Shown here: in pieces, positions 3,654 to 63,661 of the stretch
Position numbering within the stretch: the stretch's first letter is position 1
Layout of the letters: the number at the start of each line of letters is the position of its first letter
Source of the DNA: Candidatus Omnitrophota bacterium
GTDB taxonomy: Bacteria; Omnitrophota; Gorgyraeia; Aquiviventales; Aquiviventaceae
DNA length: 64,000 bases
Assembly: GCA_016192545.1 (NCBI GenBank)
Contig: JACPTX010000054.1
Span: forward strand, 4,421 to 68,420
Direction: 5' to 3'
Notes under the pieces: generated by a model
Told to the model about the DNA's origin: nothing
The model's database searches: none
The model's input: the letters and a program-made list of their open reading frames with translations, nothing else
Position numbers and translations under genes: made by a program

Positions 3654-8128
<4,475 letters not shown>

Positions 8129-8130
8129 AT

Positions 8131-8185
8131 GGGGACGGTTCTATTTTTCTGACCGAACGGAAAAAGAAAAAATAGAACCGTCCCC
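8131..8185. repeat. AT-rich palindromic intergenic repeat (family C, GGGACGKTTCTATTTTT)
   Basis: Arms 8131-8148 and 8168-8185 are perfect 18-nt complements, directly after the gltB stop. Related copies lie at 21287-21338 and, as a half copy, at 11568-11583. Confidence 0.8.
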
Positions 8186-8207
8186 TATTGTCCGTCGGCC
8201 ATTCACC

Positions 8208-11589: not shown

Positions 11590-12816
11590 ATGAAGTACGT
11601 GGTGGTGTTACCGGATGGCGTGTCGGACGTCCCCCTCAAGGAGCTGGGCGGCAAGACCCCGCTTGAGGCCGCGAAGCATCCGAACATGGACTGGATCGCC
11701 CGCGAAGGGATCACGGGCTGGGCGCGGACGATCCCGCCGGGATTCGCCCCGGGCTCGGACGTGGGGTGCATGAGCGTGTTCGGCTATGACCCGCGCCGGT
11801 ATCACACCGGCCGCGCGCCGCTGGAAGCCGCGGCCCAGGGCATCGTGCTCACGGATTCACAGGTCGCGTTCCGCTGCAACACCCTGACCGTCGAGCACGG
11901 CGTGATGATCGACCACTCGGCGGACCACATCAAGACCGAAGACTCGGCGCAGCTCATGAAGACGGTGAGCGAGCGGCTCGGCGGCAACGGGGTGCAATTC
12001 CATGCCGGCGTGAGCTACCGCCACCTTGCCATCGTGTCGAGTGATGAGTGTCGAGTGACGAGTGAAGAGCTGGCCAAAATAGAGTGCACGCCGCCGCACG
12101 ACATCCTGGGAAAGCCCATTGACGGCTATCTGCCGAAGGGGCCGGGCTCCGACGTGCTGCGGCGGGTGATGCAGGAGTCCGTCGCGATTCTGGAGGCGCA
12201 TCCCGTGAACCGGCGGCGCGCGGCGGGCGGCCAACATGCCGCGACGATGCTGTGGTTCTGGGGGCAGGGCACGGCGACGGCCTTGCCGGCCTTTCAACAG
12301 GTGTACGGGAAGCGCGGGGCGTGCATCAGCGCGGTGGACATCGTGCGCGGCATCGGGCGGCTGGCCGGCCTGGAGATTTTGCAGGTGCCGGGCATCACCG
12401 GCTATTTCGACACCAACTACACCGGCAAGGCCGCCTATGCGCTCAAGGCGCTCGACGACGGGTTCGACTTCGTCCTGGTGCACGTCGAGTCCACGGATGA
12501 AGCCGGGCACATGGGCGACGCGAAGAAAAAGGTCCAGGCCATCGAGGACGTGGACCGGCTGGTGGCGGGCGCGCTGCTCGAAGGGCTGACGCGGCGCGGC
12601 GAGCCGTTTGGTATCATGGTGGTGCCGGACCATCCCACGGACACCACGCGCAGGACCCACATCCCGGAGCCGGTGCCGTTTGCGGTCTATGCCACGAACG
12701 GCGCGAAGGATGCGGTAGCCGCGTATACAGAATCAGCGGTGAAAGGCTCGTCGCTGAGATTTGAAGAAGGGCATCAATTGATGTCGCGGTTCCTTGGTTG
12801 GGGTCAGACCCCATAA
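11590..12816 (+). CDS. apgM: cofactor-independent phosphoglycerate mutase, archaeal type
   Basis: MKYVVVLPDG..D.P start and the HVESTDEAGHMGD metalloenzyme motif. I prefer ATG 11590 to the extended ORF that starts at 11500. Confidence 0.85.
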   Translation: MKYVVVLPDGVSDVPLKELGGKTPLEAAKHPNMDWIAREGITGWARTIPPGFAPGSDVGCMSVFGYDPRRYHTGRAPLEAAAQGIVLTDSQVAFRCNTLTVEHGVMIDHSADHIKTEDSAQLMKTVSERLGGNGVQFHAGVSYRHLAIVSSDECRVTSEELAKIECTPPHDILGKPIDGYLPKGPGSDVLRRVMQESVAILEAHPVNRRRAAGGQHAATMLWFWGQGTATALPAFQQVYGKRGACISAVDIVRGIGRLAGLEILQVPGITGYFDTNYTGKAAYALKALDDGFDFVLVHVESTDEAGHMGDAKKKVQAIEDVDRLVAGALLEGLTRRGEPFGIMVVPDHPTDTTRRTHIPEPVPFAVYATNGAKDAVAAYTESAVKGSSLRFEEGHQLMSRFLGWGQTP

Positions 12817-12838
12817 TTCTTGAGGGGTCTGACCCCTC
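12800..12838 (+). repeat. family B palindromic repeat (GGGGTCAGACCCC ... GGGGTCTGACCCCTC), short variant
   Basis: Cores at 12800-12812 and 12824-12836. The apgM stop lies inside the element. AAGGAGG (12842-12848) and the pepA ATG follow. Confidence 0.85.
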
Positions 12839-20356: not shown

Positions 20357-20408
20357 GGGGTCAGACCCCGTCAGTTGAGGCCGTCGTTCTTGAGGGGTCT
20401 GACCCCTC
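20357..20408 (+). repeat. family B palindromic repeat
   Basis: Cores at 20357-20369 and 20394-20406, starting directly after the alpha-subunit stop. GAGGAGGA and the beta-subunit ATG follow. Confidence 0.85.
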
Positions 20409-21286: not shown

Positions 21287-21338
21287 GGGACGTTTCTATT
21301 TTTCAATAGGGCAGGCAGCGGAAAAATAGAAACGTCCC
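21287..21338. repeat. family C AT-rich palindromic repeat
   Basis: Arms 21287-21303 and 21322-21338 are perfect 17-nt complements. Confidence 0.8.
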
Positions 21339-32973: not shown

Positions 32974-33779
32974 GCGACGCCCTCAGCGCGGTGCTGCTGG
33001 CGGCCGGCTATGGGACGCGGCTGTACCCGCTGACGAAGGACCGCCCCAAAGCGCTGCTGCCGCTGGGAGACACGGTGCTGCTGGATCCGGTCATGGACGC
33101 CCTCCGCGCGGTCCCCGGGCTGGCGTCGATGGTGCTCGTGAGCAACCACCGGTTTGCGGAGGGGTTCCGTCAGTGGCGGGCTCAACGGGGCCTGGCGCTC
33201 GAGGTGGTGGACGACGGGACCGACGCCCCGGAAACCCGCCTGGGAGCGATCCGGGATCTCCTGCTGGGGCTGGCCCGCGTGCCGGCGTCGCATGACGCGC
33301 TCGTGCTGGGAACCGACAATCTCTTTACGTGGTCGCTGGCGGAGTTTGTGCGCGTCGCCAGAACCAAACGCCCTGCCGCGACGGTGACGCTCCGGCAGTC
33401 CCCGTCACGCGACGAGGCCCGTCGGTGCGCGGTCGTGGACGTGGAGCCGGACGGCCGGGTGCGCCGCTATGTCGAGAAACCCGCGGAGCCGTTCTCCTCG
33501 ATCGTGGGGCTGTGTGTGTACTATCTGCCGTCGTCCGTGCGGCGTCGGGTGCAGGAATTCCTCGACCAGGGCGGCCAGGGGGATGCGCCGGGGTATTTCA
33601 TCGAATGGCTGGTGAGCCGGGAACCGGTGTATGGGTTCCTGACGGCAGGCGAGTGGTTTGACGTGGGGACGCAAGCCTCGTACCAGGCGGCGGTTCAGCG
33701 GTGGCCAGGCGCGGAGAGGGGTCAGACCCCGTCGGGTAACCCGTCGTTCTTGAGGGGTCTGACCCCTCGCGACTCATAA
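32970..33779 (+). CDS. sugar-phosphate nucleotidyltransferase (NTP_transferase family)
   Basis: The product begins with the motif [21 protein letters not shown]. The last ~20 codons ([21 protein letters not shown]) are encoded by a family B repeat. Confidence 0.75.
33718..33768 (+). repeat. family B palindromic repeat
   Basis: Cores at 33718-33730 and 33754-33766. AAGGAGG (33778-33784) overlaps the upstream TAA, and the metK ATG follows. Confidence 0.85.
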
Positions 33780-36274: not shown

Positions 36275-37345
36275 TTAGCGTAACATCCGGAAGCAGACCC
36301 ACACCGCGACCGCGTGCGGGAGCCACACCGCCAGCAGCGGCGGGAGGAACCCTTCCTTCCCGATCCCCAAGCCCGTGGCCACGCCGATATAGTAGAGCAT
36401 CCCCCAGCCCAGGCTGTTGCCCAGCCCCTGGAGATGCCCCCGGACGGCCCGCCGGGTGGAGCCCACGAAGGCGATCAGGCACATCACCAGATTCATCAGG
36501 GGAAAGGCCACCTTCGCGTCCAGCTCCACGACATACCGCCGCACGTTCGTAATCCCGATCCCCTTGAGCCGCCGGATCAGCTGGCGCAGCTGGCCGAGCC
36601 GCATCGTGTCCGGCTGCGCCTCCGGCTGCCGGAATGAGTCCGGCGTCACGGGCAGCGCAAGGAACCGCTCCACGAACGGCTCCGGTTCCCCCGCCAGGGC
36701 GCCGCTGGGCTTGAGGCGCGTGACCGTTCCGTAGAGCAGCAGCCAGCCGTGCGGGGTGAAGAGCGCCCGCTGGGCGTAGAGGCTGCGCTTCGGGCGGTTC
36801 TGCGCATCGTGCTCCAGGATCGTCAGGTCCGCCAGCTCCTGCTTCTTCAGATAGAGCGCCCGGGCGTGATAGAGCCGGTTGGCGCGGTCCAAGGCCGTCA
36901 CGCTGTCCAGGACATCGGCCTGTTCTTCTCCCCGGAACGCTTCCTGCCGAAGCCGCTGATAGACCGCGTTCGTGCCCGGCACGACCCACTCGTTGACCCC
37001 GAAGGCGGCCAGGCTCACCAGCCAGCCGACGAAGAGAAACGGGATGACGGCCCGCCGCAGGCTCACCCCCCCGGCGTTCATTGCGAGGAGCTCCTGATGG
37101 CGCACGAGCCGCGTGGCGATGAACGCCGCGCCGAGCAGGATCGCCAGGGGGGAGGCGCGGACGAAGACGAGGGGGACGAAGCTGAGATAGTACTGCACGA
37201 CCGTTCGGACCGGGATGCGGTAGCGCAGGATTTCATCGAGGTGCTCGAAGAGGTCGATGAGGCAGCTGACAAAGATGAAGACGACGATGCACCAGAGCCA
37301 GACCGGGATGAGCTGGCGGGTGAGGTAGCGGTCGAGGGTCTTCAT
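36275..37345 (-). CDS. lptG: LPS export ABC permease, YjgP/YjgQ family (second gene of the pair)
   Basis: 356 aa, six-TM YjgP/YjgQ architecture with a periplasmic beta-jellyroll insert. Naming follows the E. coli order lptF then lptG. Confidence 0.75.
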   Translation of the reverse strand: MKTLDRYLTRQLIPVWLWCIVVFIFVSCLIDLFEHLDEILRYRIPVRTVVQYYLSFVPLVFVRASPLAILLGAAFIATRLVRHQELLAMNAGGVSLRRAVIPFLFVGWLVSLAAFGVNEWVVPGTNAVYQRLRQEAFRGEEQADVLDSVTALDRANRLYHARALYLKKQELADLTILEHDAQNRPKRSLYAQRALFTPHGWLLLYGTVTRLKPSGALAGEPEPFVERFLALPVTPDSFRQPEAQPDTMRLGQLRQLIRRLKGIGITNVRRYVVELDAKVAFPLMNLVMCLIAFVGSTRRAVRGHLQGLGNSLGWGMLYYIGVATGLGIGKEGFLPPLLAVWLPHAVAVWVCFRMLR

Positions 37346-37473
37346 CCCACGCCCTGCTGGCTGGCCGAAGGCCGGTCGCTGTCACCATCGGACACCCGTG
37401 GTGACAGCGACCGTTTCGCCGTCAGCCGTTGTTGGCGTATCGGATGGCGAAACCCAGCAGGGCGTGGGATCAT
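37342..37473 (-). CDS. putative 43-codon coupling mini-ORF spanning the lptF-lptG palindromic element
   Basis: On the minus strand, ATG at 37473 runs to TGA at 37344-37342, which overlaps the lptG ATG (ATGA). My manual translation, MIPRPAGFRHPIRQQRLTAKRSLSPRVSDGDSDRPSASQQGVG*, has no internal stop. There is no SD, and the ATG lies 16 nt after the lptF stop. Confidence 0.3.
   Translation of the reverse strand: MIPRPAGFRHPIRQQRLTAKRSLSPRVSDGDSDRPSASQQGVG
37346..37468. repeat. 123-bp nested-palindrome element with 15-bp perfect terminal inverted repeats
   Basis: Outer arms: CCCACGCCCTGCTGG (37346-37360) and CCAGCAGGGCGTGGG (37454-37468). Inner helices: GGCC-GAA-GGCC, a 13-14 bp hairpin (37374-37386 with 37400-37412) and an 8-bp helix (37413-37420 with 37446-37453). 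It abuts the lptG start codon. Confidence 0.85.
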
Positions 37474-37489
37474 GCGGGCACGACGCGGG

Positions 37490-38578
37490 TCAGCGGCGCA
37501 CGATCCGGGACAGCCAGACGCCTCCGGCGGCCATCCCGATCAGGTTGGGCATCCACATCGCCAGCCACGCCGACGTCCAGCCCTTCAACGCGAGGGCGTT
37601 CATGGCGACGCTGCACAGGTAGTAGGCGATAAAGAGCCCCAGCACCCACAGGAAAATGATCAGCCGTTCATGGTGATGCGCCCCCAGCCCCAGCACGAGG
37701 CCGAACAACACGAACACGACCGTGGCGAAGGAGGAGGCGATCTTGCGATGGATCTCCAGCGCGATCGGCAGCGTGTCCACGTGCTCCGCCGACAGCCGGA
37801 CGCGTTCCTGGCCCAATTCCCGGAACGTCATCTCCTTGATCTTCTTCTGCAGCCGGTGCTTGGCGGAGTCCGACGAGAGCTTCATCGTGTAGGTGGTGAA
37901 CGACACTTTATACAGGGAGCCGGGGCGCTGGGGGTCCCACTCATCCACCGTGCCGTCGTACAGTTTCAATTGCACCTCGCGGCCGTCAGCCGAGGGCTGG
38001 AATTCCCCGTGGCTCGCCACGATGGTCCGCGTGGGACCCTGCGGTTTGGGCTCGTAGATCCGGACGTGCGAGAGCCGTTTGCCCTCCACCTGATAGACGA
38101 AGATGATGTAGGGGGGGAAGTCCTTGATGAACGTGCCGGCCTCCAGGTAGGCGGTCGGCTGTTTGATGCCGATCGCCTTGAGCTGGCGGCGGAACGCCAG
38201 ATGGGCGGCCGGGATGATGCGGTCATGCAGGACGAGCATCCCGCCGCTGATCAGGAGCCCGACGGTGAGTAGCGGCCAGATCAACCTGGCCGGCGCCACG
38301 CCGGAGGCCCGCATCGCGATGAGCTCGTAGTCTCCGCTGAGCCGCCCGAACGCCAGCACCATCGCGATGAGGCAGGCCATGGGAATCGTGAAGCTCAACA
38401 GCGAGGGGATGAGGTAGATCAGCAGCCGGAGGATGTCGAATAGGCTGACGCCTTTGGCGACCACCAGCTCCGCGAATTTGATCATGTTGCCGACCAGGAG
38501 CGCCGCCGTGAGCCCTCCCACGGTGACCAGGAACGGCCCGATGTGCTCCCTCAGGACGTAGGTGCGCAGCAGTTTCAT
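37490..38578 (-). CDS. lptF: LPS export ABC permease, YjgP/YjgQ family (first gene of the pair)
   Basis: 362 aa YjgP/YjgQ family protein. Its start overlaps the comF stop. Confidence 0.75.
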   Translation of the reverse strand: MKLLRTYVLREHIGPFLVTVGGLTAALLVGNMIKFAELVVAKGVSLFDILRLLIYLIPSLLSFTIPMACLIAMVLAFGRLSGDYELIAMRASGVAPARLIWPLLTVGLLISGGMLVLHDRIIPAAHLAFRRQLKAIGIKQPTAYLEAGTFIKDFPPYIIFVYQVEGKRLSHVRIYEPKPQGPTRTIVASHGEFQPSADGREVQLKLYDGTVDEWDPQRPGSLYKVSFTTYTMKLSSDSAKHRLQKKIKEMTFRELGQERVRLSAEHVDTLPIALEIHRKIASSFATVVFVLFGLVLGLGAHHHERLIIFLWVLGLFIAYYLCSVAMNALALKGWTSAWLAMWMPNLIGMAAGGVWLSRIVRR

Positions 38579-40640: not shown

Positions 40641-40930
40641 TCCGGTTGTCGACGATGGGGGTTTCAGCTATACTAAGCCCTGAATCTCCGACGGACATTC
40701 CTGCCATGTGGCATACCCTCACACAGGGACTTCTGGCGTTTGCCAAGCGGGTCGGCGAGGTCCAAGCCTGGCTGATCTTGACGGTCTTTTATTTCCTCAT
40801 CCTGGCCCCTGTCGCGCTCCTCTTCAAATGCGCGGCGGATCCGCTGCGCCTGCGCCGTGCCCCAGGTTCCATCTGGCACCCCAAGCCTCCTCCGCGCGAC
40901 CTCCGGCAGTGGGCCAAGGCCCAGTTCTAA
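40637..40930 (+). CDS. small membrane protein, SxtJ-like
   Basis: A two-TM hydrophobic core (WLILTVFYFLILAPVALLF), positioned directly 5' of a carbamoyltransferase as described for sxtJ homologues. The start is uncertain: GTG 40637 overlaps the upstream stop, and ATG 40706 is an alternative. Confidence 0.45.
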   Translation: MIRLSTMGVSAILSPESPTDIPAMWHTLTQGLLAFAKRVGEVQAWLILTVFYFLILAPVALLFKCAADPLRLRRAPGSIWHPKPPPRDLRQWAKAQF

Positions 40931-40938
40931 GAGCGTTC

Positions 40939-42849
40939 ATGCGGATTCTCGGAATTTCCTGTTTCTACCACGATGCGGCCGCGGCCTTGATTGAGGACGG
41001 CCGGCTCATCGCCGCAGCCGAGGAGGAGCGGTTTTCCCGCAAAAAGCACGATGCGGATTTTCCGAAGTTGGCGATCCGGTTTTGCCTGGAGACCGGCGCC
41101 CTCAGCGCCCCCGACCTGGATTATGTGGTCTTCTACGAAAAACCGTTCCTGAAGTTCGAACGCATCCTCCTGTCGTCGCTCCAAACCTTCCCCTGGTCCT
41201 GCGGGACGTTCCGCCAGGCGATGACGACCTGGCTGCTGGACAAGCTCTGGGTGAAGACGCTGATTCATGAGCAGCTCGGCATCCCGGAGGACCGGATCCT
41301 GTTTTCCGAGCACCACCTGTCGCACGCCGCCAGCGCCTTCCTCTGTTCGCCCTTCGAGGAGGCGGCGATCCTGACGGCGGATGCGGTCGGAGAGTGGGCG
41401 ACGACCACCATGGCCGTCGGGCGCGCCAGCTGGACCGGGCAGCCGCCCAATGCCATCCGCATGCTGCGGGAGATGCGGTTCCCGCACTCCCTCGGCTTGT
41501 TGTATTCCGCGTTTACGGCGTTCCTGGGGTTTGAGGTGAATGAGGGCGAGTACAAGGTCATGGGCATGGCGCCCTACGGGACCCCGCGCTACGTGGACGA
41601 GGTCTGGCATCTCCTGCGGTTGGCGGACAGGGGCGGCTTTCAGCTCGACATGAGCTACTTCAGCTTTCATCATTCCGCCCGTCAGTCCTTCACCCGAAAA
41701 TTCGAGCAGCTCTTCGGTCCTCCGCGGGATCCCAAGGCGCCGTTCGTGACCGGGGAATTCGGGGACGAGCTGGACCGCGATCAGGAGCTGTTGAGGCAGA
41801 GCCGGCACTACGCGGATATCGGGGCCAGCATCCAGCGGGTGACCGAGGAGATCATGCTCTCGCTGGCCCGCGAGCTGTACAAAGAGACCGGCATCCCGCG
41901 CTTGTGCCTGGCCGGCGGGGTCGCCTACAACAGCGCGGCCAACGGCCGGATCATGCGGGAAACGCCGTTTCAGGAGGTCTACATTCAGCCGGCGGCAGGC
42001 GATTCCGGCGGGGCGCTGGGCGCCGCGCTCTATGCCTATCACGTGATCCTGCAGCAGCCGCGCCGGTTCATCATGGAGCACGCCTACTGGGGCAAGGCGT
42101 TCGATGAGCGGGCGATCGCCGAGGCGGTCCAGCGCCATGGGCTCTCCGCCAGGCGGCTGGGGAGCGAGCAGGAGGCGGTGCGTGAGACCGTGCGGCACCT
42201 CGTGGACGGCCGCGTGGTGGGGTGGTATCAGGGCCGCTGTGAATGGGGCCCACGGGCCCTCGGCAACCGCAGCATCCTGGCCGACCCGCGCCGCAAAGAC
42301 ATGAAGGCGATCGTCAACCGCAAGATCAAGTTCCGCGAGCCGTTCCGGCCGTTCGCCCCCTCCATACTGGACCGCAGCCTGGGTCAGTTTGTAGACTATC
42401 CGATCGCGAAAGGCCTGGCGGCGGCGCGGTTCATGTTGTGCGTCAGCCCGATCCGCCCCGAGCGCCGCGAGACCATCCCGGCGGTGACCCACGTGGATGG
42501 GACCGGCCGGCTGCAGGCGGTTGAACAAGCCGCCAATCCGTTGTACTATCGCCTCATCGAAGCGTTCGAAGCCGAGACCGGGGTGCCGGTGGTGTTGAAC
42601 ACGTCCTTCAACCTGAAAGGCGAGCCGATTGTGAACCGGCCGGACGAGGCGATCTCCACGTTCCTGCGCAGCGACATGGATGCCCTGGTGATGGGCACCC
42701 ACCTGGTCACGAAGAATCATCCTGAGGAGCAGACCGAGTCGATGAATCCCGCCCCTTTGCCTTCCGTCCAATCTAAACCGGAGATGACGAAACGACGTCG
42801 GCCTTCGTCCATGCGTGTCGAAGAACGACACAGCAAAGGGGCGGGATGA
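40939..42849 (+). CDS. NodU/CmcH-family carbamoyltransferase
   Basis: MRILGISCFYHDAAAALIEDGRLIAAAEEERFSRKKHD start, ASKHA-like N-domain and YrdC-like C-domain. The true start is ATG 40939 inside ORF 40708-42849. Confidence 0.9.
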   Translation: MRILGISCFYHDAAAALIEDGRLIAAAEEERFSRKKHDADFPKLAIRFCLETGALSAPDLDYVVFYEKPFLKFERILLSSLQTFPWSCGTFRQAMTTWLLDKLWVKTLIHEQLGIPEDRILFSEHHLSHAASAFLCSPFEEAAILTADAVGEWATTTMAVGRASWTGQPPNAIRMLREMRFPHSLGLLYSAFTAFLGFEVNEGEYKVMGMAPYGTPRYVDEVWHLLRLADRGGFQLDMSYFSFHHSARQSFTRKFEQLFGPPRDPKAPFVTGEFGDELDRDQELLRQSRHYADIGASIQRVTEEIMLSLARELYKETGIPRLCLAGGVAYNSAANGRIMRETPFQEVYIQPAAGDSGGALGAALYAYHVILQQPRRFIMEHAYWGKAFDERAIAEAVQRHGLSARRLGSEQEAVRETVRHLVDGRVVGWYQGRCEWGPRALGNRSILADPRRKDMKAIVNRKIKFREPFRPFAPSILDRSLGQFVDYPIAKGLAAARFMLCVSPIRPERRETIPAVTHVDGTGRLQAVEQAANPLYYRLIEAFEAETGVPVVLNTSFNLKGEPIVNRPDEAISTFLRSDMDALVMGTHLVTKNHPEEQTESMNPAPLPSVQSKPEMTKRRRPSSMRVEERHSKGAG

Positions 42850-43349: not shown

Positions 43350-43440
43350 GGGGTGGCTGAGGCTAACCATCTGTAAGGGTGGGGCGCAAAGCTACGGGCC
43401 CTTGACATCTAAGATGTCAAGGACAGCCGAGCTGCCAAAA
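43350..43440 (+). promoter_or_regulatory. c-di-GMP-I (GEMM-I) riboswitch-like element
   Basis: Segment-by-segment match to the Vc2 aptamer as I recall it:
- GGCTAACC versus GGCAAACC.
- CCATCT-GTAA-GGGTGG, a GNRA-capped helix, versus CCAUUC-GAAA-GAGUGG.
- GGCGCAAAGC versus GACGCAAAGC.
- A long helix, CCTTGACATCT-A-AGATGTCAAGG.
- ACAGCCGAGCTGCC closing strand.
The element ends 10 nt before ATG 43446. Confidence 0.65.
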
Positions 43441-50407: not shown

Positions 50408-50459
50408 GGGGTCAGACCCCGTCAGTTGAGACCATTGTTCTTGAGGGGTCTGACCCCTC
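50408..50459 (+). repeat. family B palindromic repeat, preceded by degenerate partial copies at 50347-50400
   Basis: Cores at 50408-50420 and 50445-50457. AAAGGAGG (50461-50468) and the pilin ATG follow. Confidence 0.85.
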
Positions 50460-61494: not shown

Positions 61495-61544
61495 GGGGTC
61501 AGACCCCTCAAGAACGCCGGTCCATCAGACGGGGTCTGACCCCG
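61495..61544 (-). repeat. family B palindromic repeat, inverted orientation
   Basis: Cores at 61495-61507 and 61531-61543. The sequence is the reverse complement of the other five copies. No SD follows on the + strand. Confidence 0.85.
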
Positions 61545-62718: not shown

Positions 62719-63152
62719 GGAACCGAAGAGCAGCCTGATGGCCGCCTCGCCCTGTTCGGCAGGGGGCGGGGAGGAAAGTCCGAGCTCCGAAGGGCAGCGT
62801 ACCCTGTGAAACACAGGGCCCCCCAGGCCTTCCTGCCCCCAGACTGGGGGAAGGCAGGAATGGGGGAGGATCAGAGCCACAGAGACGAGTATCCCCGAGT
62901 CTTCCTGTCCCCCGTTCGCGGGGAAGACAGGATCGGGGGGACGTGAAACGCGGCAATCTCTACGTGGAGCAAGGCCAAACACCCTACGTTTCAGGTTGCC
63001 CGCCTGACCCCCATCGTTTTGCTTCGGTTTGCGAAGCAAAACGAAGCAATGGGGGCGTAGGAAGGTGGGCCGCAAGAGTCCCGTCGCAAGACGCGACCCA
63101 GATGGATGGCCATCCTCGACAGAACTCGGCTTACCGGCTGCTTTTCGGTTCC
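62719..63152 (+). ncRNA. rnpB: RNase P RNA, bacterial type A
   Basis: P1 pairing is GGAACCGAAGAGCAGCC with GGCTGCTTTTCGGTTCC. Conserved GGAGGAAAGTCCGAGCTCC, GGAGCAAGGCCAAA and ACAGAACTCGGCTTACCGG are present. It is longer than the E. coli RNA because of extra hairpins. Confidence 0.9.
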
Positions 63153-63157
63153 ATTTC

Positions 63158-63186
63158 TTGACCGTCGAGGAAAAAGCGAGTATACT
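63158..63186 (+). promoter_or_regulatory. sigma70-like promoter of rpsO
   Basis: TTGACC (63158-63163), 17-nt spacer, TATACT (63181-63186). Confidence 0.6.
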
Positions 63187-63199
63187 GGATGAACTTCAG

Positions 63200-63661
63200 A
63201 TGACGACCGCAGCAGCACCGAAGATGACCGTGATCAAGCAGTTTCAGCAGCACCAGCAGGACACCGGCTCGGCGCAGGTCCAGGTGGCCATTCTGACACA
63301 GCGGATCAACGGCCTGACCGGCCACTTCAAGGCCCATTCCCACGATGTCCACTCCCGCCAGGGGCTCCTCAAGATGGTCAGCCGCCGTCGCCGCTTGCTG
63401 GAGTACCTCAAGCGCCACGACGAGCCCAGCTACCGGAAACTCCTTGAGGCCTTGGCGCTGTTGTATGCAACGGCCTGTCGTGGACAGGCCCCGGCAGGTA
63501 GTGGGATGACCCCCCAGCGTGTATCGGCGCAAGTCGGCGCCTCTTCCATTACCCTTGAAACCGGCAAAGTCGCCAAGCAGGCGGACGGGTCCGTCGTCGT
63601 GCAGCAGGGCGGCACCGTCGTCCTGGTGACCGCCGTCTACGCCATCACGGCGTCCCTCTGA
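63200..63661 (+). CDS. rpsO: ribosomal protein S15 ORF lacking a stop at the expected position, so it reads in frame into the pnp start
   Basis: Residues 1-89 align with S15 (20 aa before DTGS, as in T. thermophilus S15). Codon 90 is GCA, not a stop. The frame continues through a hairpin (63472-63490) and the pnp ATG (63506) to TGA at 63659-63661. Confidence 0.75.

Follow-up and report, generated by a model that had tools for sequence, protein, structure and literature searches.

The question raised by the locus studied here is why a long nested palindrome separates an lptF-like gene from an lptG-like gene and encloses the lptG start codon in its outer helix. The locus lies in a 64,000-nucleotide stretch of DNA (hereafter the window) from a Candidatus Omnitrophota bacterium (GenBank assembly GCA_016192545.1, contig JACPTX010000054.1, positions 4,421 to 68,420, forward strand), and we refer to the palindrome as E1. 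By comparing E1 with the same junction in relatives and with copies at other loci, we conclude that it is very probably a mobile insertion belonging to a TGA-flanked family of Omnitrophota elements. We further propose, with good though lesser confidence, that E1 is one copy of a non-autonomous transposon with terminal inverted repeats (TIRs), akin to the MITEs (transposable elements of the miniature inverted-repeat type), which is common in high-GC Omnitrophota and whose surviving copies keep translation coupled through a relay open reading frame (ORF).

The lptF-lptG junction in the window and in relatives

E1 occupies positions 37342-37473 of the minus strand, on which all features of this junction lie, and has a core of 125 nt (37345-37469) between two copies of TGA; the initial annotation had given it 123 bp. 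Read on that strand the junction is gcccgc-ATGA-TCCCACGCCCTGCTGG...CCAGCAGGGCGTGGG-ATGA-agaccctc. Upstream is the lptF-like gene (37490..38578, 362 aa; PF03739 LptF_LptG, E = 1.4e-80), whose TGA stop (37492-37490) precedes the left ATGA by 16 nt, and downstream is the lptG-like gene (36275..37345, 356 aa; PF03739 LptF_LptG, E = 5.9e-67). The left TGA (37470..37472) is one half of a 3-bp target duplication, a TGA pair being present in 56/56 copies of the family; the other half, at 37342..37344, is also the stop of the relay ORF and overlaps the lptG ATG at 37345-37343. The 5' TIR TCCCACGCCCTGCTGG (37454..37469), of which the first 11 nt are invariant in the family alignment, forms the 5' arm of an outer stem, and the 3' TIR CCAGCAGGGCGTGGGA (37345..37360) forms its 3' arm, the final A of this repeat being the A of the lptG ATG. 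Three hairpins are enclosed: hairpin 1 (37413..37453), with a conserved 8-bp stem GTTTCGCC/GGCGAAAC and a 25-nt loop that is hypervariable among copies; hairpin 2 (37374..37412), here a long variant with perfect 15-nt arms, for which other copies have short and medium variants; and hairpin 3 (37363..37373), GGCC-UUCG-GGCC, with an invariant stem and UNCG-type loops in most copies.

The sequence statements of the initial annotation hold at this level, except that the outer arms are perfect over 17 rather than 15 nt (37344-37360 and 37454-37470) and that the inner perfect hairpin, which is present as described, has arms of 15 nt (37373-37387 and 37399-37413) instead of 13-14 bp. The element was said to be preceded by ATGA plus T and followed directly by ATGA, and the minus strand does read ATGA-TCCCACG...CGTGGG-ATGA; the three inner helices reported are recovered in the RNA fold of 37335-37495, which predicts one outer stem around three hairpins with a minimum free energy of -98.7 kcal/mol. 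None of 200 shuffled sequences was equally stable (mean -62.9 +/- 3.9, z = -9.18). The annotated AGGG at -10 to -7 of lptG is indeed inside the outer helix, within its 3' arm, as are the A and U of the lptG AUG; that AUG thus lies in a 17-bp helix, and lptG has no alternative start. The rebuilt ATG is the true lptG start, because the N-terminus MKTLDRYL is kept in relatives. An ATG at 37471..37473 opens the relay ORF (37342..37473, 43 aa), and the ORF list bears out the annotated run of 43 stop-free codons up to the TGA that overlaps the lptG ATG. A scan of the whole window against Rfam at gathering thresholds gave no family matching E1, and a search of 37250-37560 at E <= 10 gave noise only, the best matches having E > 1 and scores far under gathering. 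A promoter and terminator scan around E1 found nothing; an intrinsic terminator was ruled out, as 36900-37900 contains no terminator-like site in which a U tract follows a GC-rich hairpin.

Judged by its LptG homologues, the window belongs to the high-GC Omnitrophota ('Candidatus Omnitrophica'), and the junction varies among its relatives. Six Logan contigs of the window's own strain carry E1 in an identical arrangement. The site is empty in relatives with 92% LptG identity (L007/L008; lptF TGA, 22 nt, lptG ATGA) and in one with 74% (L009; cgATGA with the lptF stop, 25 nt, ATGA). In a JGI metagenome contig (L010, 73%), a 143-nt element with E1-like termini and a different interior, and hence of another subfamily, occupies the ATGA containing the lptF stop, and in a 69% relative (L086) a 101-nt variant of E1's own subfamily sits at the same lptG ATGA. 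Two more relatives are represented by the lengths of their lptF-lptG spacers alone (294 nt and 61 nt). This pattern of filled and empty sites implies at least three separate hits at the junction and rules out a conserved regulatory RNA. The single ATGA at the empty sites suggests that the ATG at 37471..37473 was the lptG start before the insertion. In the empty spacer of one 92% relative (L007 1-43) we also note an end, ...GCCGCAACGAGGTGGGGGGA followed by TGA, that resembles the right end of TCCCCCCACCT-type elements (L063 6257-6384 terminates ...GCCGCAGGTGGGGGGA before its TGA); this may be a decayed older insertion or a mere Shine-Dalgarno-like stretch.

These comparisons bear directly on the two explanations offered in the initial annotation, namely a mobile palindrome that targets ATGA and a cis-regulatory RNA that sets the LptF:LptG stoichiometry. 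A leader, thermometer or coupling device evolved at this site would account for the very stable fold that buries the lptG start and for the open mini-ORF ending at ATGA, and LptF and LptG function as a 1:1 pair. We nevertheless judge a conserved device of this kind to be highly improbable, since the element is missing from the 92% and 74% relatives, the 73% relative carries another element at another ATGA, the same type of element stands before dozens of unrelated genes, and Rfam holds no match. The annotation had itself named a lack of conservation in the spacers of relatives as a ground for refutation, and the empty sites already contradict such a device. The mobile palindrome, by contrast, is supported by the filled and empty sites and by dozens of unrelated loci with a 3-bp TGA duplication, with the correction that the target is TGA and that the second ATGA is rebuilt by the terminal A of the element.

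A TGA-flanked family in high-GC Omnitrophota

Two pattern scans, in both of which the flanks were left free, yielded 56 non-redundant copies. The first scan, of species-representative genomes with the pattern TCCCACGCCCT...AGGGCGTGGGA, gave 39 copies with TGA directly on both sides (TCA on the other strand). This number includes the window's own copy, added from the window, and L010, fetched earlier; the remaining copies are in Omnitrophota metagenome-assembled genomes (MAGs) and in one MAG labelled Planctomycetales. The second scan, of metagenomes with the E1-subfamily pattern, gave 18 copies, all of them TGA-flanked and all in one orientation. In the pooled set, from high-GC Omnitrophota MAGs and metagenomes, 56/56 copies are bounded as TGA...TGA, and the family boundaries read TGA-TCCCACGCCCTG...CAGGGCGTGGGA-TGA. 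Two further copies have other duplications, TGG (L046) and CAA (L067), and the repeat is therefore a genuine 3-bp duplication of the target, TGA being strongly preferred. Immediately before the left TGA, the base is A in 44/55 copies (80%, against a background of 27.8%; p = 2.7e-10 in the first 39) and G or T in nine more, giving GTG or TTG, while the base after it is T in 39%. A 4- or 5-bp duplication (ATGA or ATGAT) was ruled out on these figures, the first of the two bases not always being A and the second being T in only 39%.

The elements are 87-194 nt in size, with a sole internal frame that is hypervariable and 30-65 codons long, and they adjoin unrelated genes in at least 8 MAGs and several metagenomes. 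They thus have several features that characterize MITEs: terminal inverted repeats, a target duplication, a small size without a transposase gene, many loci, and both filled and empty sites. Some copies stand in tandem arrays (L035 234-554, L022 2445-2596, L067 4227-4491), in which successive units share one TGA; each new unit was therefore inserted into the ATGA rebuilt by the preceding one. In the first of these arrays, units of 103 and 106 nt jointly make a 212-nt (3n+2) open relay. Matches of the first scan in Pseudomonas, Xanthomonas, Caulobacteraceae and other groups were set aside as a different repeat, as they have no TGA flanks and contain the 11-mer within longer palindromes. Such palindromes with the pair TCCCACGCCCT/AGGGCGTGGGA occur at L014-L018, L023, L030, L033, L038, L044, L049 and L056, in Pseudomonas, Xanthomonas, Pseudoxanthomonas, Caulobacteraceae and Hyphomonadaceae, one of them reading ggcaagccgagc-TCCCACGCCC...GGGCGTGGGA-gcctggcttgcc.

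An alignment of 24 E1-subfamily copies shows that the nested structure is conserved along with the termini. The first 11 nt of the terminal helix are invariant and its 16 pairs are 98% paired; the helices of hairpins 1 and 2 are 93% and 99% paired, the latter with compensatory changes. Overall the four main helices are 93-100% paired with few compensatory changes, and the apical extensions are not conserved. The stems may be kept for DNA transposition or for RNA folding, and the data fit either.

The window contains one related element, E2, at 42742..42849 on the plus strand, which reads A-TGA-ATCCCGCCCC...GGGGCGGGA-TGA and has a core of 101 nt (42746-42846), an open relay frame and a fold z of -4.6. 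The upstream carbamoyltransferase-like ORF reads through E2 to its terminal TGA, which overlaps the ATG of a DUF5989-like gene. The site is empty in a 75% relative (L085), where the two genes meet at a plain ATGA overlap, and also in L084. We regard E1 and E2 as related members of one superfamily because both have the TGA duplication and TCCC...GGGA ends. The statement that E1 is unrelated to the other ATGA-to-ATGA element was thus mistaken as regards E2, the only other such element found in the window. The carbamoyltransferase-like ORF (40708-42849, plus strand) shares its frame with the ATG in E2's left ATGA, but its L085 homologue stops at the TGA of that ATGA; the last ~10 codons of the window gene are therefore frame-changed, or affected by an assembly indel, and are followed by a tail of 35 aa that E2 encodes.

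With relaxed criteria, a structure scan of the window detected E1 and E2 only, and the E1 termini recur in the window nowhere beyond their own arms except at one site with 3 mismatches (63491-63507). That site falls in a half-element-like sequence (63462-63509, plus strand) directly upstream of a PNPase-like start (ATGACCCCCCAG...), which consists of a hairpin GGCCTGTC-GTG-GACAGGCC followed by CCGGCAGGTAGTGGGA and TGA and has no matching 5' inverted repeat. An S15-like ORF (63029-63661) passes through it in frame and continues into the pnp N-terminus. This sequence may be the remnant of a related element.

Translation across the element

The census also reveals a family-wide constraint on length and reading frame. 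In most copies the left TGA closes a long ORF, the right ATG opens one, or both hold; the usual target is therefore an ATGA in which stop and start codons overlap, or a start codon with A as the next base. As the last base of the element is A, GGGATGA is invariably the sequence of the right junction and the downstream ATG is restored. A core length of 3n+2 is found in 46/56 copies, with lengths of 101, 104, 107, 110, 125, 128, 131, 137, 140 and 143 nt, and in 43 of these 46 (93%) the relay frame, from the NTG overlapping the left TGA to the right TGA, is free of stops; when the same 46 copies are flipped, the frame is stop-free in 25 (54%). Over the whole set, 43/56 copies accordingly contain a relay ORF that opens with the NTG at the left TGA and closes with the TGA that overlaps the right ATG. 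For the first set, 27/30 copies leave the relay frame open, whereas the other five frames are open in 47-63% (p = 1e-4). The rule also holds without exception (8/8) in a further eight copies that were found by structure alone and whose termini have diverged (TCCCACAATCT, TTCCACCACCT, TCCCCCCACCT and the ATCCCGCCCC of E2). In the hypervariable hairpin-1 loop of ~25 nt, stops number 8, 5 and 1 across the three frames, the single one being in the relay frame. Compliance also depends on what follows: where a gene starts at the right ATG, 27/30 copies are frame-competent, compared with 4/9 where none does (Fisher p = 0.009). These family figures, even more than the fold score of E1, place the arrangement well beyond chance. 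In two copies of length 3n (L050 and L066) the frame is instead fused to the downstream gene as an MIPRP... extension.

These regularities suggest how lptG could be expressed despite E1. E1 entered the TGA inside the ATGA of the lptG start, duplicating those 3 bp. The original start codon remains at the left junction and opens the 43-codon frame through E1 to the TGA at the new lptG ATG, with the lptG start codon and the 17 nt upstream of it presumably locked in a very stable helix. We propose that a ribosome which initiates at the old ATG, or is passed on by the lptF stop 16 nt upstream, would melt this helix as it reads the relay ORF, terminate at the UGA and restart at the overlapping lptG AUG. 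Copies that keep the relay would be nearly neutral and would survive for that reason. Termination-reinitiation at ATGA overlaps is established (PMC6728339, PMC10666635). Judging from the sequence, we think it fairly likely that the relay ORF keeps lptG translated. The initial annotation had made lptG translation depend on the mini-ORF; this idea fits the 3n+2 length rule and the stop-free relay frame of the family, which suggest such a dependence rather than establish it.

Several observations weigh against this proposal. No Shine-Dalgarno sequence accompanies the left ATG of E1 and the helix begins 3 nt after it, so de novo initiation is expected to be poor, and that ribosomes arrive from the lptF stop over a distance of 16 nt is an assumption. 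Copies in related MAGs are possibly not all independent insertions, and for most flanks the 'gene' calls are based on the length of ORFs in GC-rich DNA. Three copies (L025, L065 and L052) precede real genes and yet break the frame rule, and L073 breaks it too; the relay is therefore not obligatory. As for mobility, no autonomous element or transposase with E1 termini was found in the window or in ~0.4 Mb of fetched loci, where TIR pairs 300-3500 nt apart and solo termini proved to be pairs of small copies or noise. Finally, all 22 of the 22 E1-subfamily copies compared share one internal orientation relative to the TGA, as do 24/25 clustered copies overall, and 15/20 E1-subfamily copies would be stop-free even if flipped, such that a filter on stops alone predicts ~43% reversed.

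The rule-breaking copies before real genes are among the grounds for regarding E1 as a mobile palindrome that owes its frame properties incidentally to descent from a 3n+2 master copy and to the scarcity of stops in GC-rich DNA, with no translation through it and lptG starting independently. GC-rich DNA is indeed stop-poor, about half of the non-relay frames being open too, and the lengths 104 and 107 are common to many copies. We consider this very unlikely, because 3n+2 is found across many unrelated subfamilies and more than 10 lengths (101-143 and 194), the families with diverged termini included. The excess of open relay frames over flipped ones, the uneven distribution of stops among the frames of the hypervariable loop and the dependence of compliance on a downstream gene also weigh against it. 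The position of the lptG AUG within a 17-bp helix, with no alternative start, also speaks against independent initiation.

The orientation bias raises a different alternative, since a DDE transposase acting on symmetric TIRs should insert both ways; the bias therefore points either to directional integration or to extra selection on the transcribed strand. Elements derived from IS200/IS605 have no TIRs, make no target duplication and insert in one orientation 3' of a fixed short motif. Integration by such a HUH-type system, or by a site-specific recombinase for which TGA is the cleavage or crossover core, would leave the relay logic unchanged and would explain the single orientation with respect to an asymmetric TGA, for which stops do not account; the abundance of hairpins, as in single-strand transposons, and the fact that no transposase turned up are in keeping with it. 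The perfect 16-17-nt TIRs do not fit, and nor do the site-dependent TGG and CAA repeats, a signature of staggered cuts that is unexpected for IS200/IS605, or the one pair of opposite orientation (L029/L032), the only reversed copies, which have no gene at the right ATG. We have rejected IS200/IS605-like or site-specific integration as the principal explanation on account of the TIRs and the TGG and CAA duplications, and consider directional integration unlikely.

A related possibility is that the elements have been domesticated as useful parts of operon mRNAs, in RNase protection, enforced coupling or as processing sites. The conserved stems with compensatory changes and drifting loops, the UNCG-type tetraloops and the sense-strand orientation bias are all compatible with such a role, and the MITEs ERIC and Correia influence mRNA stability and processing (PMC2229807). 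The presence of the element differs between close relatives at the same junction, however, and the stems are possibly kept merely for transposition, and we find domestication rather improbable. We therefore retain the proposal of a MITE-like insertion whose surviving copies keep the relay, the element presumably being mobilised in trans by a DDE transposase whose 3-bp target is of the TNA type.

Relation to known mobile elements and significance

Among known insertion sequences, members of the IS1031 subgroup of IS5 prefer 5'-TNA-3' and exclusively generate a 3-bp direct repeat, and TGA is an observed site of ISLrh (PMC12016507). The TGA duplication of the Omnitrophota family agrees with both properties, and on this analogy an IS5/IS1031-type DDE enzyme is a plausible class of mobilising transposase. 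The ISLrh inverted repeat GAACCTGTCTAGTATCT, the only one of the group compared, is nevertheless unlike TCCCACGCCCTG, no cognate transposase has been linked to the family, and the family shows no TAA or TTA duplications even though TAA and TTA make up ~12% of TNA-type sites.

Precedent for a relay ORF comes from the MIRUs of Mycobacterium (Supply et al. 1997), which enter at start codons and contain an ORF whose coupling is at -4 nt (PMC12548453, PMC3184786). MIRUs resemble the Omnitrophota family in being small mobile intergenic repeats within operons, with filled and empty sites, short direct repeats, GC-rich internal inverted repeats and tandem arrays (here L035 and L022), and in having an internal ORF that overlaps the flanking stop and start codons and leaves the host gene coupled at -4 nt. 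The Omnitrophota elements differ in the phylum of their host (Omnitrophota as against that of Mycobacterium), in their long perfect TIRs and four-helix nested palindrome, and in a defined 3-bp TGA duplication with a start codon rebuilt from the terminal A. The resemblance is one of mode of action, and given the Omnitrophota host we do not class the family with the MIRUs.

Bacterial MITEs such as Correia/NEMIS, ERIC/IRU and RUP share a length of 100-200 bp, TIRs, a target duplication and the absence of a transposase; they give stable stem-loop transcripts co-transcribed with neighbouring genes, and some of their ORFs fuse to host ORFs (PMC2229807, PMC3184786). TA marks their termini or their duplications (PMC2229807, Table 1), and none is reported with TGA targeting, start-codon rebuilding or a 3n+2 rule. 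The Rickettsia RPEs (Ogata et al. 2000) are likewise palindromic mobile elements tolerated because they are in frame and translated, but they are peptide inserts (reviewed in PMC2229807) within coding sequences, whereas most Omnitrophota copies are intergenic relay ORFs of length 3n+2 and a minority extend a host protein (L050, L066 and the gene upstream of E2). REP/BIME sequences with RAYT, palindromes of 20-40 nt tagged GTAG or CGTC that make no target duplication (PMC3733652), were ruled out, as the present elements are 87-194 nt long, start with TCCC and have a 3-bp duplication. Our literature searches found no described TIR element that targets TGA, rebuilds a start codon and is constrained to 3n+2, and no Omnitrophota MITE.

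More tentatively, and with rather less confidence than the relay itself, we suggest by analysis of these features that the family may be an adapted 'translation-relay transposon', in which the T...A termini beside the TGA duplication, the 3n+2 length and the stop-free sense frame are adaptations of the element itself. These features would allow it to colonise the stop/start junctions of operons in compact genomes at almost no cost, and the fixed orientation would then reflect either directional integration that is new for TIR elements or selection on the transcribed and translated RNA.

The window contains other repeats and structured RNAs. Five copies of a hairpin repeat GGGGTCAGACCCC...GGGGTCTGACCCC lie at 12800-12836, 20357-20406, 33716-33768, 50408-50457 and 61495-61543; a canonical AAGGAGG and an ATG follow 4/5 copies after ~10-20 nt, as if the repeat delivered or accompanied a ribosome-binding site, and the 61495 copy follows a tRNA cluster. 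AT-rich hairpins GGGACG(G/T)TTCTATTTTT...AAAAATAGAA(C/A)CGTCCC just past gene ends (8120-8196 and 21287-21338) look like terminators or another small repeat family. A c-di-GMP-I riboswitch (43351-43439, plus strand, 58 bits) is ~500 nt downstream of E2, and a bacterial RNase P RNA of class A (62726-63149, plus strand, 161.7 bits) and several tRNA clusters are also present.

Relay ORFs in MIRUs and MITE ORFs that fuse to host genes (PMC2229807) were already known. If the relay reading is true, the Omnitrophota family would show more clearly than any other, at the level of sequence, a transposon that relies on translational coupling for its survival, evident in a modulo-3 length, a frame held open through hypervariable loops and a start codon rebuilt by the element, and it is built on dozens of copies as opposed to the few loci known for MIRUs. 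The orientation bias may in turn reveal something new about the integration or selection of such elements. Palindromes of this kind call for caution, as they will probably break assemblies and be taken for regulatory RNAs; the family explains odd long structured spacers, spurious small ORFs and protein extensions in the annotations of Omnitrophota MAGs. It also provides a natural system in which to test how termination-reinitiation proceeds through RNA structure of extreme stability.

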